DNA of 64,000 bases from a virus (lineage: Duplodnaviria; Caudoviricetes). The notes under the pieces were generated by a model. That model was not told the DNA's origin, ran no database searches, and saw only the letters and a list, made by a program, of their open reading frames with translations. Both the position numbers and the translations under genes were made by a program. Shown here piece by piece: positions 3,091-47,428 of the stretch (positions within the stretch are counted from its first letter, which is position 1; each line of letters starts with the position of its first letter). The stretch lies in IMG/VR virus record IMGVR_UViG_3300037067_004891, positions 256,001 to 320,000 of that record; one strand, written 5' to 3'.

Positions 3091-3114
3091 AAAGGTCAGA
3101 GAAATCTGACTTTT
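3091..3114. terminator. Bidirectional intrinsic terminator
   Basis: aaaggtcaga-gaaa-tctgactttt between convergent genes. Confidence 0.7.
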
Positions 3115-3946
3115 AATTTTTAAAATATTTAAAACGTTTTATATATTTTAAATTTTCTGTTATCACATTAGCGATATGATTTATTTTCAAATCATCTTTT
3201 AACATATATAAAACATTCTGCAATTCTTTAAAATTTTCATCTGTATACCCCCATGTACCTATAAAATCTTTAAAAGTATTTATTTTATCCATATCATTTT
3301 CATCTATCATATCTGGGTCTGGGTCATCCAAAAAATCTTTATAATCATAACTTATATCATAAAAATAGTTTAAGTCACTACAAATAGCAGTAATAACACC
3401 ATATAAAGCAATTTTCTTATTGAAAAGATAATGTCTGACTGTTTGTAGTAACCACTCAGCAAAATTATCCGTTATTGTAATATTTAAATCATCATCAATG
3501 GTTTTTTGAATATCTTCTATTGTTTTTAGTTCTGGGTTCTTTGAAATTTCTTTTATATTTTTATTCAAATATTCTTTAGTTTTCCAAACTTCATCCGTAT
3601 CCAAATATAGGTCACCATCTGACTCTGTTTCACCAGCACCATTAATTAATAAACATCTTGGGTCAACGACCATCGTTAAAACTTCACCATTCCCCTTTTC
3701 ATCTCTTTGTCCAGCTCTTATAGCTGCATAATTCCAAACATTATCAAATTTACTATTAAAATCACCTTCATCAGTATGGAAAAAGAATCCATCCTTAAAG
3801 TGTTTAGTTGATTCTATTTGTTTAGCAGCAAACTTACTCGTACCATGATACACAATAATATTATTCTTACTATCCTTTTGAAATGTAAAACCATGACCTC
3901 TTGCTCTATCCGTTAAACTTTCTAATCCTTCTTGTTTCGATATCAT
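3113..3946 (-). CDS. ADP-ribosyltransferase-like (YHGT) domain protein
   Basis: IIVYHGTS, FFFHT, NYAA; C-terminal ENLKYIKRFKYF leader-like motif. Confidence 0.55.
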   Translation of the reverse strand: MISKQEGLESLTDRARGHGFTFQKDSKNNIIVYHGTSKFAAKQIESTKHFKDGFFFHTDEGDFNSKFDNVWNYAAIRAGQRDEKGNGEVLTMVVDPRCLLINGAGETESDGDLYLDTDEVWKTKEYLNKNIKEISKNPELKTIEDIQKTIDDDLNITITDNFAEWLLQTVRHYLFNKKIALYGVITAICSDLNYFYDISYDYKDFLDDPDPDMIDENDMDKINTFKDFIGTWGYTDENFKELQNVLYMLKDDLKINHIANVITENLKYIKRFKYFKN

Positions 3947-5019
3947 TTTTTTCTTGGATATTTTTCATAAACACTAATCATATAAGGTGGGATATCACCT
4001 TTAACTCTGAAACCGTGTCCATATAATGCACTTTCAGCTAAGGAATCCCCAACACTTATACCAGCATGTAATATTTTATTATATAATTGGTCTTTATCAG
4101 CTTGTAATAAATAAACTGGAATTACGACTTCATAAACAACGATATCATCATAAGGATAAGCTATATCCCCAAAAGTTTTAGCCATATCAGGAAAAATAGA
4201 TAAATAAACATATCCTGTCTGAGATTGAAAAGATTTTTTAGTTTTATTTTTAGTTGTTAATAGTCCATCTTTCAATATATTTATATTAGCAGATGTTCCG
4301 TGATACAATTTCACTGGTTTACTATTTGGTTGATATTGATTTTTATGTGGACTTATTATTTTATTAAATTCTTTCAACATTTCGGGTGTTGGGTCTGAAT
4401 AAAATAAATCAGGATATTCCTTTAATAAATCGATAGGATTACTCATATCCACATTATAATTAGAATGAACATAGGCTTCGAATTTTTTAAAAGTGCCTCT
4501 TTTCATATTTATTACCATCCAATCATTAATCTTAGAATAATCATACACATCATTCTCATTGAACCTTTTATCGTTAAATGTTAAAGCTATAATAACAAAT
4601 GATTGAGGGTGTTCCCATAAATATACCGTGTGTTTAATTACATACTCTACGAATTCATCTGGGATAATTGGAATACCATCTTTAGATAAAATATCTTTAT
4701 ACTTTTCTAATATTTCAGATAACATTTTTTCATTATACATCCATATAGAACCTGACGAAACATTAGATTCTGATTCAGATTTAATTTTGAATATAATATC
4801 ATTTTCTTTAGAATATTTCACTAAATTATCTATAACCTCATCTGGGTTGCCATATCTATTATTTATATAATTAATAGGTAAATATCCCAGAGCCTTTGTT
4901 TTACCAACATTCAGTAAATCACCAAGGACGATAAAATCTTCTGGTTTAAAATTATAATCGGTTGTTATTTTTTTCGAAGTTGGATTCTTAAAATCCTCGA
5001 ATAAAATTAAATATTTCAT
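3943..5019 (-). CDS. Two-domain putative virion protein with a C-terminal ART-like (Tpt1/PARP-like) domain
   Basis: Leader MKYLILFEDF; internal TFKKFE; KLYHGTS..ILKDGL..YVYLS..GDIPP. Confidence 0.65.
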   Translation of the reverse strand: MKYLILFEDFKNPTSKKITTDYNFKPEDFIVLGDLLNVGKTKALGYLPINYINNRYGNPDEVIDNLVKYSKENDIIFKIKSESESNVSSGSIWMYNEKMLSEILEKYKDILSKDGIPIIPDEFVEYVIKHTVYLWEHPQSFVIIALTFNDKRFNENDVYDYSKINDWMVINMKRGTFKKFEAYVHSNYNVDMSNPIDLLKEYPDLFYSDPTPEMLKEFNKIISPHKNQYQPNSKPVKLYHGTSANINILKDGLLTTKNKTKKSFQSQTGYVYLSIFPDMAKTFGDIAYPYDDIVVYEVVIPVYLLQADKDQLYNKILHAGISVGDSLAESALYGHGFRVKGDIPPYMISVYEKYPRKK

Positions 5020-11769: not shown

Positions 11770-12930
11770 TTAATTCTGGTTCTTTTTCATAAATTCTCTA
11801 CATTCTAAAACTAAATTATTTTTTTTAAGATATTTAAAAGCACCAGCATGATTCTTTTTTATTTTATATGTCGTGTTATAACCATTTCTTATTATTAATT
11901 CTTTAATTTTATAAAAATCCCAAACTGTATTATTTCTTTTCAAATTTTCTAATAATTCTTCTAATTTATGTCTCTTAATATAAAGATAACAATTTGGTGA
12001 GTTTTTCAAAAAATCCGAATAATTTTCATATTTTGATATTTCACATTTCGCTTTATTCATATCCCACAAGATACGCTTTCTTATTAAATTTTTAGTATAA
12101 TGTTTCAACGCTCGTTTTCTAAGCAAACTGGCATATAAACTAACTTCATTGACTCTAAACTCTTGAAAATTTTTATATTTACTAATTATTTGTTTTACAT
12201 CATTTTCGTCTAAAATACTATCTTTTATTTTTAAATATAAATAGTTTTCATCAATATCTAATATATTCTCAGTTGTTAATTTTAAACTACAAAAATTATT
12301 GATATAATCTAAATTATCAACCAATTGTTTTTTAATATCATCGACATATTTTCTATTATTTTCCTTTATGATTATTAATTTAATACCTTCTTCGACACAT
12401 TTCATTTTTTTAATGATATCATTTTCATCATTTATATGCCAAGCTTTTCCATTATATTCAAACGCTAAGTTATATTTTGGTATATAAACATCTAATTCGT
12501 ATGGACTAATTATTTTTCGACTATTATAAATAATTTTATCTTTTATTAATATTTTTAATATTTCAAATAACAATAATTGTGGTATACTATAACTTTGACT
12601 TATCATATGTGAACAAATATCATCTAATACACCCATTAATCTTGCTGATGTGTAAGCTGAATTATCTAACTGTTGAAATTCGCCTCTCGCTTTATATTTT
12701 TGTGCTATTTCTTTTAAATTTTCATAACATAAATCTCGACCAGTTATTTTATTTCTCAATCCAATCATTTCACTTTTATGTTCTTTAGATTTTTTTAACT
12801 TTAAAACAGTAGCTTTTTTACTTATACCTTTAACACTTCTATTCATTTCTAAGGCTAACTCATCCGTTCTTTTATTTTCAAAATTTTCAATTAAATAATT
12901 AATTTCATTGTCAGTCCAAAACGTCCTCAT
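11770..12930 (-). CDS. Putative homing endonuclease (PD-(D/E)XK/Vsr-like with DNA-binding repeats)
   Basis: PYELDVYIPKYNLAFEYNGKAWH. Confidence 0.7.
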   Translation of the reverse strand: MRTFWTDNEINYLIENFENKRTDELALEMNRSVKGISKKATVLKLKKSKEHKSEMIGLRNKITGRDLCYENLKEIAQKYKARGEFQQLDNSAYTSARLMGVLDDICSHMISQSYSIPQLLLFEILKILIKDKIIYNSRKIISPYELDVYIPKYNLAFEYNGKAWHINDENDIIKKMKCVEEGIKLIIIKENNRKYVDDIKKQLVDNLDYINNFCSLKLTTENILDIDENYLYLKIKDSILDENDVKQIISKYKNFQEFRVNEVSLYASLLRKRALKHYTKNLIRKRILWDMNKAKCEISKYENYSDFLKNSPNCYLYIKRHKLEELLENLKRNNTVWDFYKIKELIIRNGYNTTYKIKKNHAGAFKYLKKNNLVLECREFMKKNQN

Positions 12931-13967: not shown

Positions 13968-15338
13968 ATGAAACACATTTCAAATTTTAATAATTTTCAC
14001 ATAATAAATGAATCTATGTTTGGAAAATTTAATGGTAATATTCAATATACCGATTGGTCGGATTTCAAAGAGAAATTGAAACACACAATCACAACAGATT
14101 TTAATTCAATTGAAGAAATGATTTCTTTAATGGGTATGAATATTGACCGCTATAACAAAATAAAAGAAAATATGATATGGAATTGGAAAGATTCTGTATC
14201 AAAAAGTTTGTTACACTCAGTCGCTGAACTAAATTATAAAATACCAAAAAAAGGAACAAATATATTTCCTGATTTATTAACACAAACAAGATTTTTAATT
14301 CTATCCGCAAATGGATTTCAATCCAGAAACGTATTTGGAGATTATAATTCCACAAGTGGTCTTGGAATATTAAGTAGTATGAGAGATTTGGAAAAAATAA
14401 AAAACACTGACCCAAAACAAACCGAGCGAGATAGATTTTCAAATAAAGAAATAATGAAACGATATGTATCAATAGGTGGGACAGACGCTTTTACTGTTAG
14501 GTCAGAAGAAGCAATTAAAAAGGTTAATAATATACTTCAATATATTTGGTTATATGTTTTTTACAATCACTATGTCTTGAAAAAAGGTTTAAAAGAAAAA
14601 ACTCATAAATTACCAAAATATCTTTATAGGGGAATCCGAGGAACTATGTGGCAAAAAGCTGAAAAGGTTATCGGTAAGGAATGGTCAGAATTATCTAAAA
14701 CACATTCAGATTTAAAAGTGAAACATAATAAAGCCATGCAAGAAAAATATGATTTACTTTTTGATTATATACTTAAAAATAGTATACATAAATTGACTGA
14801 TGGTAAATATCTTTCTTTCACTGCCAGTATGCCTATCGCAAAATATTTTTCAAATAAAGACGGATTTGTTCTTCGAGTTGACACTTCAAAAGTAAATATA
14901 ATAACATCGGAACTGACCGATGAATTATTCGACCAAGAAGATTATGTAAGTGGTAGAAAAGAAAGAGAGTATATTGTTGTAATACCTGAGAATTATAAAT
15001 TTCAAAAAGATGATATCATAGTAACTGATGAAGATTATCTCATAGCTACTAACAACCCATTAAGTGTTGGTGCATTTACACACGACACTAAAGAAGCTTT
15101 TTATGATATGTTAGATGATAAAGGAGTTAAATGGAATGTTCACGCATATTATGTTTGGTCATCAAATGATAAGGGTGGGGTGATATATGGTGTAAAAAAA
15201 GATGGTGAGGAAGATTATAACTGGGCAGATGGTAGAAACAATATTAAGAAAAAATACAATTTTGACCCATTACCAACAGAAAACAATTTAGATAAAATAA
15301 CAAATTTTAAGGTAAATGATGAGAAAAAAAGATGGTAA
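13968..15338 (+). CDS. R-S-E type ADP-ribosyltransferase (Alt/VIP2-like), putatively virion-packaged
   Basis: KYLYRG, YLSFTAS, KEREYIV; leader MKHISNFNNFHIINES; TAATATATA at 13946. Confidence 0.7.
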   Translation: MKHISNFNNFHIINESMFGKFNGNIQYTDWSDFKEKLKHTITTDFNSIEEMISLMGMNIDRYNKIKENMIWNWKDSVSKSLLHSVAELNYKIPKKGTNIFPDLLTQTRFLILSANGFQSRNVFGDYNSTSGLGILSSMRDLEKIKNTDPKQTERDRFSNKEIMKRYVSIGGTDAFTVRSEEAIKKVNNILQYIWLYVFYNHYVLKKGLKEKTHKLPKYLYRGIRGTMWQKAEKVIGKEWSELSKTHSDLKVKHNKAMQEKYDLLFDYILKNSIHKLTDGKYLSFTASMPIAKYFSNKDGFVLRVDTSKVNIITSELTDELFDQEDYVSGRKEREYIVVIPENYKFQKDDIIVTDEDYLIATNNPLSVGAFTHDTKEAFYDMLDDKGVKWNVHAYYVWSSNDKGGVIYGVKKDGEEDYNWADGRNNIKKKYNFDPLPTENNLDKITNFKVNDEKKRW

Positions 15339-15343
15339 TATAA

Positions 15344-17896
15344 ATGATAAGAACCGAAGTATTAAATAAAGAAAAACTATCTAATATCATATATAGTTAT
15401 GGTGAACCGTATGACTTTGATAAGAAAATAAAATATTTTCATTATTTTGATATTCGGTCATCACATTTGGACTATGATCCCAATGAAAAATATAAAGCCA
15501 GAACATATTTTGTCACCTTATTTGATGATGATGATATCATCGGATTAGCTAAATTACAAGAAAATCCATATAATCAACAAGGTTTATTTTGGATACAGTA
15601 CATTTCCATCGATGATAAACACCAAGGAATGAGATATTCAAAATATATTATTGATAGAATGATAAAATTTTGCAAAGAAAATAAATTTAAATTGAAAACA
15701 TCTGGTTATTCAACAAAAGGGTGGGAACGTCTAAGGGAATATCTTCATTTATCTGCGGGTGCAAATGATGTGGAATTAATTGATACCAAAGAAAAACCAG
15801 AATACGAAAACCACACTTCAATAGACACATTAGTTAATACAAAAGTCATAGATTTTAATAAAAAACCGTTGATTGTATATCATGGAACAAATAATAAATT
15901 CGATATTTTCGATATAAATATGATAAACACAAATGAGAAGAGTGGTGATTATATTGGTTCGGGAATATATTTCACACGTTATAAAGACACTGCATTAAAA
16001 TACGCAAAACAGGCGGTGAAAAAAGGTGGGGGTTTAGTAAATATTATATCGGCATATTTAAATATCGAACATCCATTAATTATAAATAACACATCAGATG
16101 CTCAAAAATTGAGAGATTTATTTGGCGGGGAATTTAATTATTTTTCTATTTTGGATGACAATCCAAATCTTATTAAAGATGAATTAATAAAATTGGGTTA
16201 CGATGGTTTAATAGACAATATGTATAATCAATATGCAGTATTTGAACCAAGTCAAATTAAAATAATTGATAATTCTGTATCATTACAAAATGAAAATATT
16301 GTTAGTTTTTCAAATTTCATTGTAAATGAAGAACATGACTACACCAAAGAATCCATTTTAAAATTTATAAAAGATAGAAATCTTTATTTAATGGATGGAA
16401 AATATTTGGAATTATATCATGGAACAGACCCAGCATCATATAGAAAAATAGAAAAATCTGGTAAATTAAAATCTGGTACATGGTTCGGGATAGATTATGA
16501 AACATCAAGAAGATATGGTTTAATGAGATTACACAGAGGTGAACCAGTGGTAATGAAGATTTATGTTGATATTGATTCCTTATATATATCAAGTGAATAT
16601 TTTATTGCTAAACACGATTTAAAGATGAACTTGATGTATGGTTCTGGTTCTAATGTTTATGAAAATAAAAATCCAAATATAAAATGCTATATTTGCGAGA
16701 ATAATAATACAAAAGAAGAAATGTTCATACCTGAAGATATATTAGAGTTTCACGATTTATTTACTCAGGCTGGTAAAAAACTTTTTTTAGTTGGGGGTTG
16801 TATCCGTGATTATATAATGGGTAAAACACCACATGATTATGATTTAGTAACTGATGCATCACCAGATGAGACTAAACAAATTTTAAAAAATTACAGAACA
16901 AATTTACAGGGCGCACATTTTGGTGTAATAAGAGTGTATACCGAAGATGAACCAAAGGGATATGAAGTAGCTTCTTACAGGCGTGATATCTCAAAAGGAC
17001 GCTCAAATAAAGGCGATGATCAAAAAGTTGAAATCGGTTCTCATATCACTATTAAAGATGATGTTTTAAGAAGGGACATAACTCAGAATGCGTTATTTTA
17101 TGATATTGGTAAAAAAGAAATAATAGATTTAGTTGGTGGTATAGAAGATATTAAAAATGGTATTATACGAGCTGTCGGTAATCCAATGGAACGATTCAAT
17201 GAAGACCGTCTTAGAATTTTGAGAGTTTTTCGTTTTTCAGCCCGTTCACGTTTTAAAATTGATGATGAAACAGCGAATGCTATAAAAAAGGACAACCGTC
17301 TGAACGGTTTATCACCTGAAGAAGATGTTTCCCAAGAAAGAATACTGGAAGAAATTTTTAAAATATGGGAATATGCATCCGAAAAAAATGATTTACCTGC
17401 TTGGAAACTATATCTCAAATATCTGACTGAGTTTAAAATGTGGAATCAGATGTTTAAAAACATGCTTATTAATGAGGATGTGATTAACATTGATAGTTTA
17501 GATTTAATTCAGATGTATACATATTTATTTCTGGATAATACTCCAGATACTGAATTTAATAAACGTTTGATTAGAACATTTAAATTTTCATCGGATAATG
17601 CTAATATAATTTGTTTTCTATTAACATTTTATAATAATATCAATGATGTCGATAAGGTGTTTGATATGAAAAAGAAACAAAACCAATTTGATATTGACCC
17701 GAATATTATAAAAGAATTTTCTGATATACATAAACTGGATAAAAAATTTACTGATAAATTCATTGAATATGATTTAACAGTATCAGGACAAGAATTAATG
17801 GATTCTGGACTAAAAGGAAATGAAATTGGTATAGAACAAAGGAAGCAAGAAAAAGAAATTTTTCAAAATATGATTAACGAATCTTTTGATTTTTGA
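15344..17896 (+). CDS. cca: Polyvalent fusion: GNAT + two ART-like domains + CCA-adding enzyme (class II tRNA nucleotidyltransferase)
   Basis: YISIDDKHQGMRY; LIVYHGT..GIYFT..GYDGL..VFEPSQIK; LYHGT; LVGGCIRD, DYDLVT, RRDITQNAL, EDRLRILR. Confidence 0.85.
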   Translation: MIRTEVLNKEKLSNIIYSYGEPYDFDKKIKYFHYFDIRSSHLDYDPNEKYKARTYFVTLFDDDDIIGLAKLQENPYNQQGLFWIQYISIDDKHQGMRYSKYIIDRMIKFCKENKFKLKTSGYSTKGWERLREYLHLSAGANDVELIDTKEKPEYENHTSIDTLVNTKVIDFNKKPLIVYHGTNNKFDIFDINMINTNEKSGDYIGSGIYFTRYKDTALKYAKQAVKKGGGLVNIISAYLNIEHPLIINNTSDAQKLRDLFGGEFNYFSILDDNPNLIKDELIKLGYDGLIDNMYNQYAVFEPSQIKIIDNSVSLQNENIVSFSNFIVNEEHDYTKESILKFIKDRNLYLMDGKYLELYHGTDPASYRKIEKSGKLKSGTWFGIDYETSRRYGLMRLHRGEPVVMKIYVDIDSLYISSEYFIAKHDLKMNLMYGSGSNVYENKNPNIKCYICENNNTKEEMFIPEDILEFHDLFTQAGKKLFLVGGCIRDYIMGKTPHDYDLVTDASPDETKQILKNYRTNLQGAHFGVIRVYTEDEPKGYEVASYRRDISKGRSNKGDDQKVEIGSHITIKDDVLRRDITQNALFYDIGKKEIIDLVGGIEDIKNGIIRAVGNPMERFNEDRLRILRVFRFSARSRFKIDDETANAIKKDNRLNGLSPEEDVSQERILEEIFKIWEYASEKNDLPAWKLYLKYLTEFKMWNQMFKNMLINEDVINIDSLDLIQMYTYLFLDNTPDTEFNKRLIRTFKFSSDNANIICFLLTFYNNINDVDKVFDMKKKQNQFDIDPNIIKEFSDIHKLDKKFTDKFIEYDLTVSGQELMDSGLKGNEIGIEQRKQEKEIFQNMINESFDF

Positions 17897-19285
17897 ACTA
17901 CCACTAAGCTAAAGACTTAGTAGTTTCCTGCGCTGACCTCGTAACCTCAGTCATATCTCGCAAGGCGTGAATTTCGGTCGTCCCAACCGTATTTTTAATT
18001 TTTGCAAAAGCAAATTTCTTTATATTATTTGCTGCATTGATATCTCTATCATGTTTAGTGTTACATTTAATACAAGTCCATTCTCTATCTTTTAGAGTTA
18101 ATTTATTATTGATATGACCACAAGAACACATCTTAGAACTTGGTTCAAATGTTCCAATTCTCAATATATTACATCCGTACCACTCAGCTTTATAAGTTAG
18201 CATTCTAACAAATTCTGACCAACTTACATCAGATATTGATTGAGCTAAATTATGATTCTTTATCATATTAGACACACTAAGAGTTTCTAAACATATAGTC
18301 TCATTATTATTTATTAAATTAGTTGACAATTTATGTAAGAAATCAACCCTTTTGTTTGAAATTTTTTCATGAGTCGATGATATCACTTTAATAGATTTCT
18401 TTATATTGATACTACCTTTTAATTTTTTAGAATGTTTCTTCTGTCTAATCTTCAACCTTCTCAATGACTCTTTTAAATACTTAGGATTGTCAATTACCAA
18501 ACAATCTGAAGTAACTAAAAATGATTTAATACCTAAATCAATACCAATAGCTTGTTTTTCACTTATCGGTGGCTTTACAGGTATTATATCATTATTTTGC
18601 ACTAAAATAGAAATATAATATTTATTATTTATTTTTGATATAGTAGAATTCTTTGTTATTCCTTCAAACCTCCTATCAATGATTATTTTAATCCCAGTTT
18701 TGAATTTTGGTAAATAAACCTTAGATTCTTCAAAATCAACAAATGTATTTGCTGGTATGCCAAAACTGTTTTTAGGATTTTTCTTTGATTTGAAATTAGG
18801 CTTTCCAATTGAATTTAATCTTTCTAAATTAATTTCTAAACCTTTAGACTTTCTACTGAAAATATATTGTTTTTTCTTCTTTTCAAGAACACCATTTTTA
18901 TTATCATGAAAAAACTTATTGAAAGCATTATCAAGATTCTCTAAACTATATTGTAATGATTGACTATTCACTTCTTTTAACCACTTTGTTTCTTCTTGCT
19001 TCTTTAATAAAGGTAAATCTTTTTGAATATCAAATCTGGATAGTGAGATGTTTTCTTCTTGGTATACTCTATTCTTTTTGTCAAGAGCATAATTATACAC
19101 CCACCTTACACAACCAAAATGTTTGTTAATCAAAATTTCTTGTTCTTGATTTGGATATATTCTATATTTATATGCTCTTAACACTTTTATTATAGTTATA
19201 TTTTTGGAAAAAGTTTACTATATTTTTATTTTTAATCAAAAATCATCTCACGAAACTAAAGACTTCGGAATTTTTGAAAATTTTA
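17893..19285 (-). mobile_element. IS200/IS605-family tnpB-only element (IS1341-like)
   Basis: Right-end hairpin actaagtctttagcttagt then ggtagttca; degenerate left-end hairpin at ~19249-19267; left boundary approximate. Confidence 0.8.
17904..19184 (-). CDS. tnpB: TnpB RNA-guided endonuclease
   Basis: AYKYRIYP HTH; GIDLG, ICLETL and HDRDINAA RuvC triad; Zn finger. Confidence 0.95.
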   Translation of the reverse strand: MLRAYKYRIYPNQEQEILINKHFGCVRWVYNYALDKKNRVYQEENISLSRFDIQKDLPLLKKQEETKWLKEVNSQSLQYSLENLDNAFNKFFHDNKNGVLEKKKKQYIFSRKSKGLEINLERLNSIGKPNFKSKKNPKNSFGIPANTFVDFEESKVYLPKFKTGIKIIIDRRFEGITKNSTISKINNKYYISILVQNNDIIPVKPPISEKQAIGIDLGIKSFLVTSDCLVIDNPKYLKESLRRLKIRQKKHSKKLKGSINIKKSIKVISSTHEKISNKRVDFLHKLSTNLINNNETICLETLSVSNMIKNHNLAQSISDVSWSEFVRMLTYKAEWYGCNILRIGTFEPSSKMCSCGHINNKLTLKDREWTCIKCNTKHDRDINAANNIKKFAFAKIKNTVGTTEIHALRDMTEVTRSAQETTKSLA

Positions 19286-19828
19286 TATATTATCAATTAT
19301 AAAATCTAAATTATTGTCAACACCTTTCAAATCTTTCCATAGATTAGAATTAATATATTCATCATAAAAAATATTCATATTAGAATAAGCTTCAGATTCC
19401 CAAGGTAAATTTTTATATTTTTCGATATCTTTACCTAATTTATAATATTCTTTAACATTCATTGTAAAATTATCTTTCCATATTATAAATTTATAATCAC
19501 CAGATGGTTTTAACTCACCTTTTGATACCTGTTTAATATGTGTTAATTCATGTATAAGGGATTTAATTATTTGAATATAACTTTGATTTGAGTTAAAAAA
19601 TAGTGTAAACTTATTGTTATTTACTGAATTATCATTTATTTGTATGTCACCAAGAAGATTTGTTGATTGTTTCTTTTTAACAATTATCTTAGCATCAAAA
19701 TTCAATTTTATTTTCATAAAAGATATCACAGAATTTATGAGTAATTTTTCATAAGTTTTAATTTTATTATCTTTAACAAGAATATTTTCGTTTATTCTAA
19801 ATTGATGGAAATTATTAATATGTTTCAT
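19283..19828 (-). CDS. Zincin-like metallopeptidase with leader motif
   Basis: LIHELTHIKQ..PWESEA; leader MKHINNFHQFRINE. Confidence 0.75.
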   Translation of the reverse strand: MKHINNFHQFRINENILVKDNKIKTYEKLLINSVISFMKIKLNFDAKIIVKKKQSTNLLGDIQINDNSVNNNKFTLFFNSNQSYIQIIKSLIHELTHIKQVSKGELKPSGDYKFIIWKDNFTMNVKEYYKLGKDIEKYKNLPWESEAYSNMNIFYDEYINSNLWKDLKGVDNNLDFIIDNI

Positions 19829-19837
19829 TAATATATT

Positions 19838-20380
19838 TTACGTTTTACAAAATTCTTTTATCTTATCGATAACATAATCATCGATTGGTAAATTATCTAT
19901 ATTATAATATCTGGTTTCTGATATTGGAATATTATTGGCACTCCATATCACAAAGTCACCAGTTCTTTTATTATATTCAATTGCAATTTTAGAAAAGTCT
20001 AATGATTCTTCATCATCGTGTAAATCAGCCCATTTTTCTTGGGTTATTTCTTCATCTTCTTCATCATCAAAATCTTGATTTTCTATTTTTCTATTTAAAT
20101 AATAGTATTCCTCAGATTTTTCTTTATTCTCTGGAGACATATTATAATTTCGCTGTATGATATAAATTAACTTGTTTTGATTTTCTCCGTTCACATAATT
20201 ATCTGACCACGCACCTGAATGTGGTGCAGATGTACACCAATTCGTATATGCACCATATTTACAACTGGCTTCTTCAGATAGTGGAGCAACAACTATATAT
20301 TTATCATTTCTTAAAATTTCAATTCTTTCTTCACGAACAACTCTTTTTTCAAATAAAAAATCTTTGAATTTAGTTTTCAT
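19838..20380 (-). CDS. Hypothetical protein (SCxYG..TxWC motif) with leader motif
   Basis: MKTKFKDFLFE; ASCKYGAYTNWCTS. Confidence 0.6.
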   Translation of the reverse strand: MKTKFKDFLFEKRVVREERIEILRNDKYIVVAPLSEEASCKYGAYTNWCTSAPHSGAWSDNYVNGENQNKLIYIIQRNYNMSPENKEKSEEYYYLNRKIENQDFDDEEDEEITQEKWADLHDDEESLDFSKIAIEYNKRTGDFVIWSANNIPISETRYYNIDNLPIDDYVIDKIKEFCKT

Positions 20381-20900
20381 ATAAATTAATAGTTTTTAAT
20401 ATTCGCAATTTGTTAGGGTCAAAAATAAATAAGTTATCCACACCCGTTTCCCTTACATATGCACCATCATAATCATTTTTCTTCAACCATTCATAAAACC
20501 AAACTTGTTCCAGTTCACTATAATCACCCGAACAAATTCCACCATAATACCTATCTACATCTTCAAATTTTTTCTCAATATCAAAATATAATTTTTCACC
20601 AAGTATATAATCTTTATTATCTTCTTTTTTAATACCTTTTTCTAAAAATCTAAATAAATCATAACCATTCGGTAATATTTTATAATCAAATATTTTATTT
20701 GTCAACACTTCTATTTCATATATATGTGGTGTTTTAAATCCAGCGTGTGTCTCTGCAAAATCTTTATCAGATGTTAAAAACACAGGAGCGATATAATTAT
20801 AATCTAAAAGAGTTCCTTTTTTTAATTTAAAATCGGAAAAAGATTCTTTAGACCCATGATACCACTTCTTATTAAACTGTTCAAATAATTTAAGACGCAT
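20370..20900 (-). CDS. ART-like (polyvalent-protein type) domain protein; probable start 20900
   Basis: MRLKLFEQF; KWYHGS, VFLTSD..FA, DYDGAY, IFDPNKL. Confidence 0.7.
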   Translation of the reverse strand: MRLKLFEQFNKKWYHGSKESFSDFKLKKGTLLDYNYIAPVFLTSDKDFAETHAGFKTPHIYEIEVLTNKIFDYKILPNGYDLFRFLEKGIKKEDNKDYILGEKLYFDIEKKFEDVDRYYGGICSGDYSELEQVWFYEWLKKNDYDGAYVRETGVDNLFIFDPNKLRILKTINLYEN

Positions 20901-21384
20901 TTTGATTATTTTTGAATTTATCAACAAAAAATCTTCTTCTTAATATTGAAGCTTTATTTGGGTTTGTTTTATAAAAGTCTTTAGCTTCTATTTCTAAATT
21001 TTTAATTTCTTCTTCACCCATATTAGCTGTCCATTGTTTAAATTCTGGAGAGTGTGTCACAGTTTCAATTTCTTCGATTTCTTTCAAATATCTATCGATA
21101 CCGATGTTATCTAATGATATTATATAGTTTATACCATCTATCGCTTTTGCACCCCATATATTATTTGCTAAATAAAGGCTAACATCTTCCAAACTATTTC
21201 TTGAAGCCATACCTCTTGTACTACCATTTGTTGTATCTTTTATATCAAAATATTCACCATGCATATTTTTCTTTTTATACACTTCAATAGCATATTTTCC
21301 ACCCTTGGTAGCAGCACGGAACATCAATTCACCATTTTCAGATTCATTATTATTTTCATTTATAAATTGAGAGAATGTTTTCAT
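20890..21384 (-). CDS. Putative internal head protein; probable start 21384
   Basis: MKTFSQFINE closely resembles the T4 internal-protein leader MKTYQEFIAE. Confidence 0.6.
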   Translation of the reverse strand: MKTFSQFINENNNESENGELMFRAATKGGKYAIEVYKKKNMHGEYFDIKDTTNGSTRGMASRNSLEDVSLYLANNIWGAKAIDGINYIISLDNIGIDRYLKEIEEIETVTHSPEFKQWTANMGEEEIKNLEIEAKDFYKTNPNKASILRRRFFVDKFKNNQNAS

Positions 21385-38735: not shown

Positions 38736-41700
38736 TTAATTTAATTTTTTAATTTCCCTTTTCAATTCTGATAAATCACCCAACCAAATTTCTTGTATAG
38801 TTTTTTTAGAATATTCTTCTAAATCTTTTAATTTATCCGATAATTGGTTTTTTAAATTATCATATTTTTCTTTAGATAGTGAATATATAACCATGTTTAA
38901 CAAGTAATCATAAGAATTATCTAACTTATCAAGCTTATTATTTTCACACTCTTGTTCAATATATTCTTTATTCTTATTAGATATCAAAATTTTATTATTA
39001 ATAATCAAATCAATAAAATTACATCTGTTTGTTAATATTTGGATATCCTTGTTTATTTTTCCAATTATATTCTGCCTACGTTGTTCATAAAAAGGTAAAC
39101 GGTTAATATAAAATTCATTAATTATATCATATACAGTATCATATTTTTTTATTTTACTATTTATATCAAATAAATGCATATTAGACATATTTATCCTCGA
39201 TGTTAATTGAAATAAATCATATAATTTATCATCTTTTATTGGATATTCTTTTGATAAATTGATTATTATATTAACGTCATCATCATTACATTTTTTAATA
39301 TAATTTTTAATGATTTTATTATCAATCAATTTATCTAAAAAATTATAGTAATTTTCATTCCAAGTACCAACTGGTAATTCAGTAATATTTAATTGATTAT
39401 CGTTAATTCTATTTATAATACCAGTTGTGATACAATTATCAACAGCTTCATCATATTGGATTTTACCTTTAAATTTATTATAAAAAGGTGTTAGGGTTAT
39501 ATTTTTTTTCTTATCTTTTAATTTATTTTCTAAATAAACAATCAAATCGTTTATATTAAATTTAGGTATAGTTGTTGAAAAACCCGTGCCTATCCCATTA
39601 CACCCGTTCACAAGTATTAAACATATACAAGGGATATAATATTGTGGTTCAACTATTTTACCATCCGATTCTAAATAATTTAAAAGTTCTTTATCAGAGT
39701 CTTTGAATATTGTTTTTGTTATTTGTCTTAATTCAGTATGAATATATCTTGCAGCAGCACTATCTTCACCACCATGTAACCGTGTTCCAAAACTACCAAT
39801 AGGTTCTATTAATGGCAAATTATTCGAACCCACGAAATCTTGCGCCATAGTTATTATAGCTTCTTCTAATGATTGTGGGCCATGATTGTAAATAGCAATG
39901 GACTTAACATACCCAAATAATTCTCCAACATTAATTTCACCACTTTTGTTTAATTTTAATAATGTGTATAATATTTTTCTTTGACTGGGTTTCAAACCAT
40001 CCATAATATTAGGAACGTTACGCACAACATCAAAAAGAGAATATTCTATAAATTCATTATTCATAAAACTTTCATAAGTGGTCTTTTGGGATAACTTATC
40101 AAAATTATTGTTGATATCATATTCACCCATCCATTTTTTTCTATCGTCAGCCCTGTTTTTTCTAAAAGCTAAATCAATTACATCTTTTGTTTTTTCTGGA
40201 TTAGTATAATGAAATTTAATTAAATGTTTATCTATATTTTCAAAAACCATTTTAACTTCATCCTTACTAAGAGTACCCAAACCTTTAAAATGTTTTATAG
40301 TATAACCCGTTAAATCATTAGTATCTTTCCATTTATCATAATCTTTTATTTTATAAAAATACTTATGCTTGCCATTTTTTGTTATTCTTAATATAGGGGT
40401 TATAAACTCATACATAAAATTATTCAATAGAGAAGGAAAGAACATTTCTATGTAATTTAAAATCAAACCTTTGATGTGATACCCATCACAATCGGCATCC
40501 GTCATTAATACCAGTTTACCATACCTTAATGACGAAGTATCAGTATATTTTTTACCATATTCCAATCCCAATATTTGTGCTATATTAGAAAGTTCTTCGT
40601 TTTGTTTTAATTTTGAAATAGATATATCACGAACATTTATCGGCTTTCCTTTTATTGGAAAAGACCCATAGTAATCTCTACCTGTATATTTAAACCCAGA
40701 TACTGCAAAACTTGATGCACTATCACCTTCAGTAATAAATAGAAAACATTTATCTGATTCTTTTGTGCCAGCTTTATTAGCATCTACTAATTTTTGAACT
40801 TTTGGTGTTTTATTATTTTTATTCTGAACTGATTTTTTTAAAGCTAATTGTTCTTTAAGTTCAATATAATCTAAAATTTCCTGAGTAATATCAGATTTCA
40901 GTATTTTCTTAATAAAATTATCAGAAATTTCAACGTCTTTAAAAGTTGACACTTTTGTATTTAATATTTCTTTAACCTGACTATCAAATTCTGGATTAAA
41001 AATTTTTGAATTTAAAAATAAAAATATTTTTGACTTAATATCATTAGGGTTTATTTCAAACTTATTTCCTCTTGAAAGAGAAACTTTTAATTTACTTGTA
41101 ATTTGATTTATAATATAATTAACATGTGTTCCCCCTTGTAAGGTTGCTAATCCATTAACTAATGAAATTTGTTCGAATGAATCAGTTGATGTTTTCATAA
41201 TACCAACTTCCCAGAAATCATTTATTTTTTCATAAATAATTTCTTGATCATCTGGCATGAACAATTTCATATAATCTTTAAAAGTTTTAATATTAATCAA
41301 GTTATTATTAAAATATACTTTGACATTCGGATTATAAGCAGCTATATCAATGGTTCTTTTTATCATTACGGATTTGATATCATCAGTTAATTCAGTGAAC
41401 CCAAACCGTTCATAATCTGGTAAAAAAGATATTTTGGTAAACTTCTTAGAAGTTGCTCTGATATGAGGTTTTGGTAATTTACCCTTTTTATCTGTTGATA
41501 AATTATCGGTGAATACTTGTTTATAATAATTTTTTCCATCGGCAGTTTCAACCATGAACTCTTTGGAGAATATATTACATGCCTTAGAACCAATTCCATT
41601 ACGCCCACCCCCAATACGTTGTTCTGTATCATCATAATTTTCGCCAGTTAAAAGATGACCAAAAATTAATTCAGGAACATATACTTTTTCGTCCTTATGT

Positions 41701-42026
41701 ATTACAACAGGTATACCATCACCATCATTCCAAACGGATATTCGGTTATTTTCTATTTCAACCTTAATTACTTTAACACGACCAGTTTTAACACTATGAT
41801 CAGATGCATTAGTAATAATTTCATCAAATATTTTTATTAAACCAGCATTATAATTTATTTCTTTCTTGACAATTTTTAAATTTTCAAAATTGTTTATATC
41901 ATCAACTGTAAACACTAATCTTCTTTCAGAATTTATAGAACCAATATAAGTATCGCTACGTTGTAGTACATGTTCTCTCTGTGAAAGTTTCTTATACTGT
42001 TCTTCAATCTTCTTTTTCTTAGCCAT
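38736..42026 (-). CDS. top2: DNA topoisomerase II, single polypeptide
   Basis: EIITNASD, GGRNGIG, TEGDSA, PIKGK, MTDADCDG, KGLGT, DGLKPSQRK, AARY. Confidence 0.97.
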   Translation of the reverse strand: MAKKKKIEEQYKKLSQREHVLQRSDTYIGSINSERRLVFTVDDINNFENLKIVKKEINYNAGLIKIFDEIITNASDHSVKTGRVKVIKVEIENNRISVWNDGDGIPVVIHKDEKVYVPELIFGHLLTGENYDDTEQRIGGGRNGIGSKACNIFSKEFMVETADGKNYYKQVFTDNLSTDKKGKLPKPHIRATSKKFTKISFLPDYERFGFTELTDDIKSVMIKRTIDIAAYNPNVKVYFNNNLINIKTFKDYMKLFMPDDQEIIYEKINDFWEVGIMKTSTDSFEQISLVNGLATLQGGTHVNYIINQITSKLKVSLSRGNKFEINPNDIKSKIFLFLNSKIFNPEFDSQVKEILNTKVSTFKDVEISDNFIKKILKSDITQEILDYIELKEQLALKKSVQNKNNKTPKVQKLVDANKAGTKESDKCFLFITEGDSASSFAVSGFKYTGRDYYGSFPIKGKPINVRDISISKLKQNEELSNIAQILGLEYGKKYTDTSSLRYGKLVLMTDADCDGYHIKGLILNYIEMFFPSLLNNFMYEFITPILRITKNGKHKYFYKIKDYDKWKDTNDLTGYTIKHFKGLGTLSKDEVKMVFENIDKHLIKFHYTNPEKTKDVIDLAFRKNRADDRKKWMGEYDINNNFDKLSQKTTYESFMNNEFIEYSLFDVVRNVPNIMDGLKPSQRKILYTLLKLNKSGEINVGELFGYVKSIAIYNHGPQSLEEAIITMAQDFVGSNNLPLIEPIGSFGTRLHGGEDSAAARYIHTELRQITKTIFKDSDKELLNYLESDGKIVEPQYYIPCICLILVNGCNGIGTGFSTTIPKFNINDLIVYLENKLKDKKKNITLTPFYNKFKGKIQYDEAVDNCITTGIINRINDNQLNITELPVGTWNENYYNFLDKLIDNKIIKNYIKKCNDDDVNIIINLSKEYPIKDDKLYDLFQLTSRINMSNMHLFDINSKIKKYDTVYDIINEFYINRLPFYEQRRQNIIGKINKDIQILTNRCNFIDLIINNKILISNKNKEYIEQECENNKLDKLDNSYDYLLNMVIYSLSKEKYDNLKNQLSDKLKDLEEYSKKTIQEIWLGDLSELKREIKKLN

Positions 42027-45171: not shown

Positions 45172-46242
45172 TTAAAAACGTTGGGTAGATTGTGTAATAT
45201 CTTCTTTAAGTTTTATATAAAAAACAATTTCTTTTTGATTAATATCTACGGAGTAGTCAACTCTATAATTCCAATTGTATTTGAGTATCCAATTTTCCAA
45301 GGTTGTTAAAAATTGAAAGTGTGGTAAATTCGGATTTATAAAATCTTCATAATCGAATTTTTTATAACATATTTTATTGTTGATTATATAAACAGGTTTT
45401 TCTTTTAGAAATAATTTAAATTCCTTTCGAACTTTACACAAAAATGTTAAATTATTAAGATTGATTGTTTGTAAAACACTATATATAGGAATTATAGAAT
45501 TCATATTTAAAGATTTTAAAAATTTGGTTGTTACTTTAAACTGACCAGTTTGTATTAATTTGTGGTCGTGATTAACATAAAAACCATATTTTAAAATAAA
45601 AGATTCTATCGAAAAATAAAGTGATAAATTGGAAATGTTATTATTTGAAATTAATGTATTATAAGTAATTATAAGAGATTCTTTGTCTTTTAATTCTTCG
45701 TTTAATAATATGTAGTTATTAATATTTATCGTGTGAAAAAATAAATTATAATCACCAGTGTTCAGATATAATTTATCTTTTTGTTTAATAAAGTTAATAC
45801 TGAATTCTGATAAAATTCTTAAAAGTATAACAAAAGCTCGTTCACCATCGAACAATACTTTATTTTCTTTGAGTAATGTCGAAAATAATATTATTTTGCG
45901 TTCTGTTTCTAATTCCACATCATTTATCTGGTCTACGGTATAAAAGTTATTTTTAAATTTTTTGTAATATTTATCTAATAATATATTCACACATTCGTCA
46001 TATGGCTTAGTAGCAACACAACATTTTTCGACAATATCTTTAATACCTTGAACATCGTTATATTTATTAAGAAAAAAAGCATCATTAAAATCATTAATTT
46101 CATCTTTTGGTATGTTATACGGTTCACCCATTATTATATATTTTAATTCGTTTTGAACACCATCAAAATAATATTGATACATGGGATCAAAAATTGGACG
46201 TACACCTTTTAAATCTTTTTTTCTATTTAAATCTGTTAACAT
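45172..46242 (-). CDS. Hypothetical protein
   Basis: 356-aa ORF. Confidence 0.55.
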   Translation of the reverse strand: MLTDLNRKKDLKGVRPIFDPMYQYYFDGVQNELKYIIMGEPYNIPKDEINDFNDAFFLNKYNDVQGIKDIVEKCCVATKPYDECVNILLDKYYKKFKNNFYTVDQINDVELETERKIILFSTLLKENKVLFDGERAFVILLRILSEFSINFIKQKDKLYLNTGDYNLFFHTININNYILLNEELKDKESLIITYNTLISNNNISNLSLYFSIESFILKYGFYVNHDHKLIQTGQFKVTTKFLKSLNMNSIIPIYSVLQTINLNNLTFLCKVRKEFKLFLKEKPVYIINNKICYKKFDYEDFINPNLPHFQFLTTLENWILKYNWNYRVDYSVDINQKEIVFYIKLKEDITQSTQRF

Positions 46243-47428
46243 ATTTTTTAATTTTTAATATTTTACTTTCTTCCATCTGGACAGGTTCTTCTTCCTGAAC
46301 TTCTTCTTCAGTTTCCATTTCATCTTTCATTTCTTGATAATAATATGGGTCAAAATTATAGTCATTAAAAGATAACATATCAACATTATTGAAGAAATCT
46401 ACCATTTCAAGAAATTTTTTAAATTCTTCTTTTAATGAGTAGTCATTAAAATCATTATATTCATTTGATGAATTATAATATATTTTAGTTATAAATTTAG
46501 GCATAATTACACCACCATAACCAAATTTTCTATATGTAGAACCTATATACTTATTTTTTAGATATTTTAAAACTTCATTTTTATCGGATATATAATGTGG
46601 TTCTATTTTAGAATATATTTCATGGTCACCTTTATCACCTATATATGTTTTGAAAAAATCATAATCAAAATCTATTTTAGATATATCAATACCTGATGTA
46701 TCAATTTCAATAATAACAGGTGGCATATTATTAATATTTCCAGCTTTTCCAGCATGAAACATCGCACTTGTTTTTTCACCCGTTAAAAATGAATAATTTT
46801 TATGTTTTATATTTTTAAAGTTTGAGGGTGAAATATTGGGACGTAATCCAAGTTTTAATATATTTTCTAAATATTTAACTGATGTTCCATGATAAACATA
46901 TTTTGGTATTTTTCGAAACTGTACTTCTTTAGTAAAACTATCTATAAGATTATCGATATAAACTCTTTTTTCTATTGTTTCTGTATTATTATAACCAACT
47001 GTTTCATACATTTCTAAAGTATCAACACCTAATTTATTTTTCAATTCTTTAATAACATCAATAAAAAATTTTGAACTGTTAATATCTTGTGTGAACTCAT
47101 CATATACATCTATTTTTAGTGTATCTGGTGTACTTGTTTCATAATGAAATATCACAACGTTAGGATAATTTTCTTGTAAATCTCTTATTAAATTTGACAC
47201 TTCTTCATTTTTAATATCTTCAGTTTCCCCTTTATATGTGCCAAGTTCTTTTAAAATATCAGTATATATTCTTATAATACCTTTTGTGTCATAATCATCA
47301 ACTATATAAATATATTTTCTAAATGCTATAATGGTGCATTCTTCCGATTCTTTTATACTATTAAAATCGGGGTGTAATATTACTTCATTTAAAAAATCGT
47401 TGAATTTTATAATCTCCATTGATGGCAT
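46223..47428 (-). CDS. ART-like (Tpt1/PARP-like) domain protein with leader
   Basis: MEIIKFNDFLNE; YVYHGTS..ILKLGLRP, SFLT, PVIIEID, GVIMPKFI. Confidence 0.7.
   Translation of the reverse strand: MPSMEIIKFNDFLNEVILHPDFNSIKESEECTIIAFRKYIYIVDDYDTKGIIRIYTDILKELGTYKGETEDIKNEEVSNLIRDLQENYPNVVIFHYETSTPDTLKIDVYDEFTQDINSSKFFIDVIKELKNKLGVDTLEMYETVGYNNTETIEKRVYIDNLIDSFTKEVQFRKIPKYVYHGTSVKYLENILKLGLRPNISPSNFKNIKHKNYSFLTGEKTSAMFHAGKAGNINNMPPVIIEIDTSGIDISKIDFDYDFFKTYIGDKGDHEIYSKIEPHYISDKNEVLKYLKNKYIGSTYRKFGYGGVIMPKFITKIYYNSSNEYNDFNDYSLKEEFKKFLEMVDFFNNVDMLSFNDYNFDPYYYQEMKDEMETEEEVQEEEPVQMEESKILKIKKYVNRFK

Follow-up and report, generated by a model that had tools for sequence, protein, structure and literature searches.

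In phage T4, the capsid-targeting sequence (CTS) is the decapeptide MKTYQEFIAE at the start of IPIII (PMC8442874). Residues 4 and 7 matter most for targeting and residues 8 and 10 for processing, in which the prohead protease gp21 cleaves behind L/I-x-E; tag function has been demonstrated at the N-terminus only (PMC9026906). The T4 ADP-ribosyltransferase (ART) Alt enters the head, undergoes processing at both of its ends and is injected (PMC9026906, PMC5512222). Packaging and injection are likewise predicted for polyvalent proteins, which carry ART, GNAT, Pol-beta nucleotidyltransferase and ParB domains (Iyer, Burroughs, Anand, de Souza and Aravind, 2017, PMC5512222). Here we describe P0001, the product of an open reading frame (ORF) from an uncultured phage, which extends both of these known kinds. 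The ORF encodes 850 amino acids (aa) in one uninterrupted frame at 15344..17896 (plus strand, stop codon included) of the window, by which we mean the whole 64,000-nucleotide stretch analysed, bases 256001-320000 of a linear IMG/VR virus record of 421,673 bp (GC 25.7%, completeness rating 59%). To judge by its sequence, P0001 is a single-chain effector of four modules, a small 'polyvalent protein' joined in frame at copies of a CTS-like leader. Our favoured reading, to which we assign a probability of roughly one half, is that this leader-joined effector is loaded into the phage head, cut at its internal leader and ejected with the DNA.

The comparison with T4 cargo is close in several respects. 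Like the T4 tag, the leader is ten residues long, with aromatics at positions 4 and 7 and I/L-x-E at positions 8-10, and it is the only feature shared by otherwise variable and unrelated cargo proteins. Relatives of the phage encode a T4-type portal, protease and capsid protein, and the putative cargo includes ARTs, as does that of T4, where Alt is processed C- as well as N-terminally. Unlike in T4, the tag of P0001 lies internally between enzyme modules while its own N-terminus is untagged, tagged genes number dozens per megaphage genome rather than a handful, and the clade's protease is fused to a scaffold of tandem tag-like repeats. With polyvalent proteins, P0001 shares the presence of several conflict-type enzyme domains in one phage polypeptide, among them the defining ART-PolyVal domain (H-Y-D) together with GNAT and a nucleotidyltransferase of the Pol-beta superfamily; the sister protein P0002 adds a putative ParB-like module. 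It differs in being small, with four modules and without peptidase or large-polyvalent-protein domains, and in that its modules are bounded by CTS-like leaders instead of generic linkers. Its nucleotidyltransferase is a full class II CCA-adding enzyme, and the term 'CCA' is absent from PMC5512222.

CCA enzymes are common in jumbo phages and have been discussed there as agents of RNA repair (PMC7824862). The P0001 module resembles these jumbo- and huge-phage class II enzymes (PMC7824862, PMC7162821) in family, fold (Z ~27), catalytic motifs and the co-occurrence of phage tRNA genes; it differs in being fused behind three transferase modules, and copies in relatives carry a CTS-like N-terminal tag that would imply delivery in the virion. 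We found no proposal of virion delivery for phage CCA enzymes in the literature searched, nor any paper there that links capsid-targeting sequences to huge phages. In phiKZ, 201phi2-1 and SPN3US, head-internal ejection proteins are cut after Glu by a gp21-related protease, and ejection-protein propeptides of giant phages reach 254 residues (PMC10052503, PMC5694885). The cleavage motif of the phiKZ-type proteins differs from that considered here, however, their propeptides are not known as folded enzymes, and a four-enzyme polyprotein has not been described in those systems. In the pre-ejectosome of cyanophage A4 (9k3a), an ART-like fold occurs in a solved virion-internal chain, the top structural match of the first ART module of P0001.

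Four enzyme modules in one open reading frame

The original prediction, made from the nucleotide sequence before our analysis, placed four enzyme domains in the order GNAT-ART-ART-CCA within the ORF. Pfam, PHROG, AlphaFold2 (AF2) and orthologue residues bear out this order, although the second ART falls under its Pfam cut-off, and it is nearly certain that a single fused ORF with these four folds is real. AF2 modelled the whole chain with a mean predicted local distance difference test (pLDDT) of 75 and low-confidence stretches at residues 152-332 and 430-451; a second AF2 model, of residues 150-470, was built with more ART homologues. All features of P0001 given below lie on the plus strand.

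The GNAT acetyltransferase module (residues 28-148, 15425..15787) was assigned with Pfam, AF2 and VIA-align. It matches PF00583 at residues 40-115 with 25.7 bits against a cut-off of 20.7, which is marginal, and has a pLDDT of 70-89 and VIA-align Z scores of 8-9 to many GNATs (residues 24-161). A linker (residues 149-162, 15788..15829), with pLDDT below 50 from residue 152, contains PEYEN (152-156) and leads to ART1, an ART-PolyVal ADP-ribosyltransferase (residues 163-314, 15830..16285) recognised by Pfam, AF2 and Foldseek. Here the match is strong: PF18760 (ART-PolyVal) covers residues 174-311 at 94.7 bits against a cut-off of 31.2. The module is resolved at residues 163-314 in the second AF2 model (pLDDT 63-91), whose best Foldseek match for ART1 is 9k3a_B of the cyanophage A4 pre-ejectosome (E 2.3e-5), followed by tankyrase/PARP catalytic domains. 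ART1 is 48-54% identical to ART modules of the classical polyvalent proteins P0004-P0006 (500-1164 aa), and its lead-in, K-x-[IV]-D-x-x-x-x-P-L-[IV]-V-Y-H-G-T, is typical of the repeated ART modules in such proteins. Because of this lead-in and this identity, ART1 looks as though it was imported from a polyvalent protein.

ART2, a divergent ART domain (residues 334-430, 16343..16633, AF2 pLDDT ~90), is the least certain of the four modules. PF18760 matches it at about residues 351-435 with 24.6 bits (E 4.7e-5), under the cut-off of 31.2, and H359, Y385 and D425 are invariant across four orthologues. The sole VIA-align row that reaches it is 9ld3_A, with Z 7.7 over 84 aligned residues, a score range common for this tool. 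Sequence searches of the PDB with ART1 and ART2 gave nothing useful; the LanKC matches obtained (E ~7e-4) cover a helical stretch. ART2 was found only in fusion with the CCA module, and a word-index search of limited reach revealed no stand-alone ART2 proteins of 79-254 aa.

The ART2/CCA linker (residues 431-459, 16634..16720), with pLDDT below 50 at residues 430-451, holds VYEN (438-441) and a vestigial leader, IKCYICEN (446-453). It is followed by the class II CCA-adding tRNA nucleotidyltransferase module (residues 460-845, 16721..17878), for which Pfam, PHROG, AF2 and VIA-align agree. PF01743, the PolyA_pol head domain, matches residues 480-609 at 111 bits, PHROG 2244 (tRNA nucleotidyltransferase) matches residues 477-841 at 1e-50, and AF2 models residues 452-845 with a pLDDT of ~97. 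In VIA-align, the module scores Z 27.1 against 3aql and, over 344 residues, Z 26.7 against 1miv; both are bacterial class II A-/CCA-adding enzymes and score alike, so the fold match does not separate CCA from A addition. The GGxxRD motif, D498/D500 and R576-R577-D578 are conserved among 60 homologues.

A leader with the conserved positions of the T4 CTS

Many ORFs of the record start with a leader of consensus M-x-[IK]-K-[FY]-x-x-F-[IL]-N-E. From the N-termini of the phage record itself we built a position weight matrix and then a hidden Markov model (HMM). The HMM gave 33 matches of at least 6.9 bits among 516 ORFs, all of them N-terminal, and the best internal match in 116,406 positions reached 6.6 bits. 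A looser pattern, [FY]xx[FY]x(0-2)[ILV]NE, tolerates the one- or two-residue insertion of some leaders; it matched 24 of the 516 N-termini and, internally, 11 sites, which makes matches 38 times as frequent per position at the N-terminus. The best-conserved leader positions, [FY], F, [IL] and E (94, 91, 94 and 98%), coincide with T4 positions 4, 7, 8 and 10, and the IPIII CTS scores 14.7 bits on the phage's leader HMM, within the range of the phage's own leaders. By this likeness the leader is the counterpart of the T4 CTS, and leaders of this class are probably head-targeting or protease signals.

Among the 10 longest tagged proteins, a Pfam search left 8 without a match, and the others are a SprT-like zincin and an ART-PolyVal protein, both typical domains of polyvalent proteins; no replication, transcription or other housekeeping family appeared in this search. 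A tagged SprT-like protein lies at 344066-344806 of the genome.

An internal leader copy between ART1 and ART2

The original prediction reported an internal copy of the leader between the two ARTs, and its placement proved exact: NENIVSFSNFIVNEE occupies residues 316-330 (16289..16333), as identified by pattern match and linker position. Its core, I-V-S-F-S-N-F-I-V-N-E-E (residues 319-330), is one of the 11 internal pattern matches; the chance expectation is ~0.08 per 850 aa, and below 0.01 inside one of the three inter-domain linkers. Structure prediction, which had been proposed for the domain boundaries, puts the motif outside the folded domains, in an 18-residue linker (residues 315-332, pLDDT 32-46) between ART1, which ends at ~314, and ART2, which starts at ~334. 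The copy fits the T4-type rule through F322, F325 and I326-V327-N328-E329, with a one-residue insertion, and a cut is predicted after E329 (I-V-N-E|E). The same insertion occurs in the leader of the upstream gene, M-K-H-I-S-N-F-N-N-F-H-I-I-N-E-S, which the internal copy resembles.

None of the canonical start codons ATG, GTG and TTG occurs at the joint leader in any of three orthologues, so translation is unlikely to start there internally. Upstream of the internal leader, at a distance of 8 nt, is an ATG in another frame (16286-16306). A single additional A in the run there would place M-K-N-I-V-S-F-S-N-F-I-V-N-E-E in the downstream frame and end the upstream one at TAG; the site may be a fossil gene boundary.

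Other short motifs had been proposed as punctuation at the remaining junctions. YEN (residues 154-156 and 439-441) and CEN (451-453) do occur, in or beside low-confidence linkers, and MINES is present at the C-terminus (843-847). In a proteome of ~9% N, 10% I and 7% E, however, all three are too short to be told from chance occurrences. In all orthologues K-P-[EQ]-Y-E-[NS] closes the GNAT module and V-Y-E-[NY] closes ART2, both bordering low-confidence linkers. The former is conserved in P0002 and P0010, but its P3 residue is not I/L, which puts it off the T4-type L/I-x-E rule; YEN-type motifs in general fit that rule poorly, and I-C-E-N fits yet is unconserved.

The C-terminal tail, MINESFDF (residues 843-850, 17870..17893), forms part of a leader-like F-x-x-M-I-N-E-S at the end of the last CCA-enzyme helix. 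The longer F-Q-N-M-I-N-E-S-F-D-F is kept as M[IL]NESFDF in P0002 and P0010, and it is echoed as KKMLNES in the distant P0026 and also in P0018. The tail recalls the C-terminal processing of both T4 Alt and gp21 (PMC9026906), a likeness that we rate as weak.

Further internal or C-terminal leader-like motifs, possibly also module joints, occur elsewhere in the record: Y-K-N-F-Q-E-F-R-V-N-E (residue 255) in the product of 11770-12930 (minus strand), L-Y-S-N-F-I-N-E (residue 226) in that of 81075-82301 of the genome, a protein that is also N-terminally tagged, and a C-terminal Y-Y-Y-F-L-N-E-K in that of 185669-186160 of the genome.

Orthologues exchange whole modules at the leader joint

It had been suggested that orthologues be compared for domain shuffling at the motifs, and at the leader joint P0002, P0010 and P0011 depart from P0001 by entire modules. 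The 828-aa P0002, from the syntenic locus L004, was found on four contigs from three samples. It shares the GNAT module and an ART2-CCA part 74% identical to that of P0001, and in the place of ART1 it has an unrelated module of ~130 aa, flanked by the leader-like L-I-K-F-S-D-F before and K-I-N-E-S after. This substitute (residues 150-300) matches no Pfam family at E up to 0.1, and its ParB-like label comes from a by-eye DGxHR-type motif only. P0010 (683 aa) is without a middle module: GNAT is followed by V-L-K-F-N-E-F-N-I-N-E-S and then by ART2-CCA. Its joint leader scores 6.8 bits on the HMM, above every internal match in the proteome of the P0001 phage, and a P0010-like ORF also occurs in a 640-kb genome with terminal repeats. 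P0011 (523 aa) begins at the leader position and consists of ART2-CCA only.

The two internal junctions have fared differently. The leader before ART2 is recognisable in three orthologues diverged to ~50% overall identity (I-N-E-S in P0002), whereas the leader before CCA has decayed to I-K-C-Y-I-C-E-N in P0001, to an extended I-K-K-Y-N-E-N in P0002, and is deleted in P0010 and P0011. Retention of the one while the other decays argues for selection on the pre-ART2 copy and is our chief reason for thinking that this copy still has a function. Leaders also recur in independent fusions: P0014 is arranged as leader, CCA, a second leader (8.7 bits) and an extra module, and P0013 has a 5.3-bit leader immediately before CCA. 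In distant phages, stand-alone CCA enzymes carry an N-terminal leader (L002, L003, at least 12 representatives); other phage CCA enzymes begin directly at M-x-I-P-x-D-I.

Modular fusion at leaders is thus well supported by the sequences, and the module joints very probably derive from leader-tagged modules. The original picture of tagged modules fused together holds for the ART1/ART2 joint, with its leader, and for the shuffling among orthologues; it does not extend to the GNAT/ART1 joint, and only a vestige is left at ART2/CCA. The order of events may have been as follows. The ancestral form would be GNAT-leader-[ART2-CCA], as in P0010; classical polyvalent proteins would later have supplied the P0001 lineage with an ART-PolyVal module, placed between GNAT and leader, and the sister genome would have gained an unrelated module at the same joint.

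We also considered that the ORF could be an artefact of assembly or sequencing, in which separate genes of a metagenomic contig were merged by a homopolymer error. Short runs of A adjoin the junction, and the ORF would fall in two with a change of one base. Yet continuous orthologous ORFs with the same order, GNAT...ART2-CCA, come from independent assemblies of different samples, and their junction sequences differ while all remain in frame, so that an artefact is very improbable.

In many other phage CCA enzymes and fusions, from less AT-rich phages (P0042, P0044, P0049, P0057, P0067, P0084, P0093, P0100, P0107, P0114 and P0139), a different conserved motif, [IL]-[IL]-x-E, stands at the N-terminus or some 10-20 residues ahead of the CCA domain, a hint that this clade may not be alone in giving CCA enzymes CTS-like tags.

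Leader-like peptides in the head genes of relatives

In the huge phage LR756502.1, three adjacent genes encode a T4-type portal (PF07230, 196 bits), a 699-aa head maturation protease and a gp23-type capsid protein (PF07068, 99.5 bits). The protease matches phrog_207 at 99 bits and Peptidase_S77 (PF03420) at 20.2 bits, under the cut-off of that family. It is a protease-scaffold fusion (L009:6273-8372, with counterparts L103 and L104 in the relatives G001 and G002): the protease domain is followed by 10-11 tandem 14-residue repeats, N-I-x-Y-S-E-Y-[IL]-A-E-N-L-D-K, each of which aligns to the leader model. The gp23-like major capsid protein (L009:8453-10168, counterparts L111 and L112) contains E-Y-A-E-F-H-Q-I-N-E-N at about residues 34-44, within a motif, W-[ML]-x-E-Y-A-E-[FYM]-H-x-[IM]-N-E-N, that is invariant at about residues 30-45 and is likely to be a maturation cut site by analogy with T4.

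The two nearest complete relatives, of 675,678 bp (98% complete) and 639,979 bp (terminal repeats), carry P0001 orthologues. Both have a gp21-like protease fused to a scaffold of 13 tandem 14-aa repeats (SI.YSEY[IL]AENxD) and an adjoining gp23-like capsid protein with EYAEMHQMNE|N near residue 40. Another 80 viral contigs combine 9-12 scaffold repeats with the invariant capsid-protein motif. The search for capsid-protein homologues covered the best 120 of 2067 matches, and the 675,678-bp relative is not among these. Going by the shared motif, one and the same peptide serves this clade as leader, as scaffold repeat and as part of the capsid protein's N-terminal piece, within a T4-type system of head assembly, and by analogy with T4 the sites in leader, scaffold and capsid protein would all be cut. 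The T4 CTS score, together with the relatives' portal, protease-scaffold and motif-bearing capsid protein, gives the link between leader and cleavage a concrete basis.

The leader could instead be a generic N-terminal helix that serves oligomerisation, another localisation, or translation or stability, in which case it would be no capsid signal and the internal copy would be silent on processing. That the tag stands on ~6-9% of ORFs, and on a housekeeping-type CCA enzyme in many relatives, speaks for such a helix. However, the T4 match covers exactly the four positions that have been mapped functionally (PMC9026906), and the Glu is 98% invariant, as would be expected of the site of a Glu-specific protease. 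A generic helix would also have to accommodate the motif in the N-terminal piece of the gp23-like capsid protein and in the 10-13 repeats of the gp21-like protease-scaffold, and the lack of a housekeeping family among the 10 longest tagged proteins. We consider this explanation improbable.

Proposed head loading and cutting of P0001

Under the favoured reading, P0001 would be made together with neighbouring tagged genes and would enter the prohead core via its internal leader, perhaps also via the leader-like C-terminal tail. A T4-type prohead protease would cut after E329 into GNAT-ART1 (~38 kDa) and ART2-CCA (~60 kDa). Both pieces would then be ejected with the DNA; the transferases would modify host targets, and the CCA enzyme would restore or complete tRNA 3' ends. 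Head loading and cutting of P0001 are plausible by comparison with T4, and packaging is indirectly favoured by the CTS-like leader and by the pre-ejectosome chain 9k3a_B as best fold match of ART1. That P0001 is in fact both packaged and cut at the internal leader we would put somewhat short of even odds. We are more doubtful of the version in which the CCA enzyme, both ARTs and the acetyltransferase are loaded into the capsid as one precursor, with the internal CTS as loading handle and cut site, and the pieces are injected. The further idea, part of the original prediction, that delivery precedes phage transcription in order to repair tRNA is speculation.

Several observations weigh against head loading and cutting. 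The internal copy has V, not I/L, at P3 as well as the one-residue insertion, and neither the strict gapless position weight matrix nor the leader HMM reports it in P0001. P0001, P0002 and P0010 are all without an N-terminal leader and start with M-I-[RN]-T. No leader is present in the GNAT/ART1 linker, and the one at the ART2/CCA junction is only a vestige, lost from two orthologues. The folded CCA domain itself contains short L/I-x-E motifs, such as LINE at residues 708-711. Routine tagging of even CCA enzymes, if it occurs, could mean that the tag has a purpose other than head loading. The 422-kb record yielded no head genes, either to family searches or to tblastn queries with the portal, protease and capsid sequences of the relatives, so the link to a protease depends on the relatives. 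Finally, ARAGORN finds 12 tRNA genes in the record (eleven in one ~7-kb cluster at G000:C1:55419-62101, and one at 137711-137784), and 0 of the 12 encode CCA, which would give the CCA module a plain cytoplasmic role in tRNA maturation without any need for packaging.

These last genes, along with the untagged N-terminus, are what one would expect if P0001 were a multifunctional cytoplasmic enzyme that is never cut. The CCA module would then mature the phage's CCA-less tRNAs, the transferases would modify host or RNA targets, and the internal leader would be a scar from the fusion of leader-tagged genes that lost their stop and start codons. The decaying or deleted ART2/CCA leader demonstrates that fossil leaders exist in the P0001 family, the out-of-frame ATG just ahead of the internal leader resembles the remnant of a gene boundary, and ART2, never found apart from CCA, suggests a pair that works as one chain. 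A scar is harder to reconcile with a pre-ART2 leader that has stayed recognisable in three orthologues at ~50% identity, and reaches 6.8 bits in P0010, or with the high-scoring internal leaders retained by the independent fusions P0014 and P0013; the P0001 ORF also sits among tagged genes. On balance, this uncut cytoplasmic enzyme is a real possibility, if one that we hold tentatively and at less than even odds.

Should head loading and cutting be true, P0001 would contain the first virion-delivered enzyme of tRNA 3'-end repair or maturation, and its capsid tags would be the first to act as joints of an enzyme polyprotein, doubling as recombination sites for module swapping. If the internal tag works, megaphages would broaden the internal-protein strategy of T4: where T4 has a few small inhibitors they would have dozens of enzymes, and single tagged proteins would be extended to multi-enzyme precursors that are separated by cutting in the head. 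The chemistry of tRNA 3' ends would then also be contested from the first seconds of infection, with the phage bringing its own CCA enzyme. As a simple rule of sequence, the leader allows a prediction of which proteins uncultured huge phages package and inject, and it is a candidate for a portable tag by which large capsids could be loaded with foreign proteins. Were the tag only a scar, the locus would still be a record of conserved leaders acting as joints for the shuffling of effector modules between phage genes.

Neighbouring genes, other ART-like modules and affiliation of the phage

A leader-tagged gene of 456 aa (13968..15338, plus strand) ends 5 nt before the P0001 ORF and is probably in the same transcription unit; its leader is kept in both of its orthologues, with the core [FY]-N-x-F-x-x-I-N-E-S. 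Facing the ORF is a block of four small genes (19283..21384, minus strand) that is syntenic in L004 and L102. Three of these are leader-tagged (an HExxH protein and two unknown proteins), and the fourth is a stand-alone ART with a partial leader that matches PF18760 at 25.6 bits. The tagged HExxH-type gene at 19283-19828 (minus strand) encodes 181 aa with a zincin-like H-E-L-T-H (phrog_10499; faint match to the DUF6782 metallopeptidase). Directly downstream of the P0001 ORF, an IS605-type TnpB gene (OrfB_IS605, Cas12f1-like TNB and helix-turn-helix (HTH) domains) is inserted at 17904-19184 (minus strand); it is missing from the equivalent place in the syntenic relatives L004 and L102. A scan for sigma-70 promoters and terminators was uninformative (51 sites vs 47 expected).

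The phage has a large expansion of ART-like modules with [IVL]-Y-H-G-[TS], several of them behind N-terminal leaders. Those in the window lie at 3113-3946, 3943-5019, 20370-20927 and 46223-47428 (all minus strand), and further ones at 117171-118412, 134753-135424 and 216213-216812 of the genome. Three of these ORFs had been thought to share the internal or terminal motif of P0001: TFKKFE (3943-5019), ENLKYIKRF (3113-3946) and EESKILKI (46223-47428) are indeed present, but only as partial look-alikes of the leader. A better leader-like stretch in ORF 3113-3946 is INTFKDFIG, at 3.5 bits. Each of the three has an ART-like Y-H-G-T-S module, and two have an N-terminal leader. The product of 46223-47428 also has a faint Tpt1/KptA match (E 0.009).

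The best phage protein matches of P0001 come from the uncultured huge phages LR745206.1 and LR756502.1 (634-642 kb), and the next from Lak and from jumbo phages of Caulobacter. Homology searching by the capsid protein of its relatives groups the phage with uncultured phages of 462-735 kb and with Lak, and we assign it to the clade of the 634-735-kb phages and Lak; the distant cultured relatives in this search have Tenacibaculum, Chryseobacterium, Flavobacterium and Sphingomonas as hosts. Distant cultured phages that share the head module are Tenacibaculum phages PTm1/pT24, Sphingomonas phage PAU and Chryseobacterium phage MA9V, whereas the contigs studied here come from landfill or wastewater samples. 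The 25% GC and a fused eukaryote-like topoisomerase II led us to consider an origin from a eukaryotic giant virus. We rejected this in view of the IMG/VR phage record, the huge-phage relatives and the lack of a match to the capsid family of nucleocytoplasmic large DNA viruses (NCLDV), a search that gave matches nowhere and whose negative is weak evidence taken alone. The topoisomerase gene (38736-42026, minus strand) encodes a single-chain type IIA enzyme of 1096 aa with a eukaryote-type TOPRIM_C domain (PF16898, 114 bits), which is unusual in a phage.

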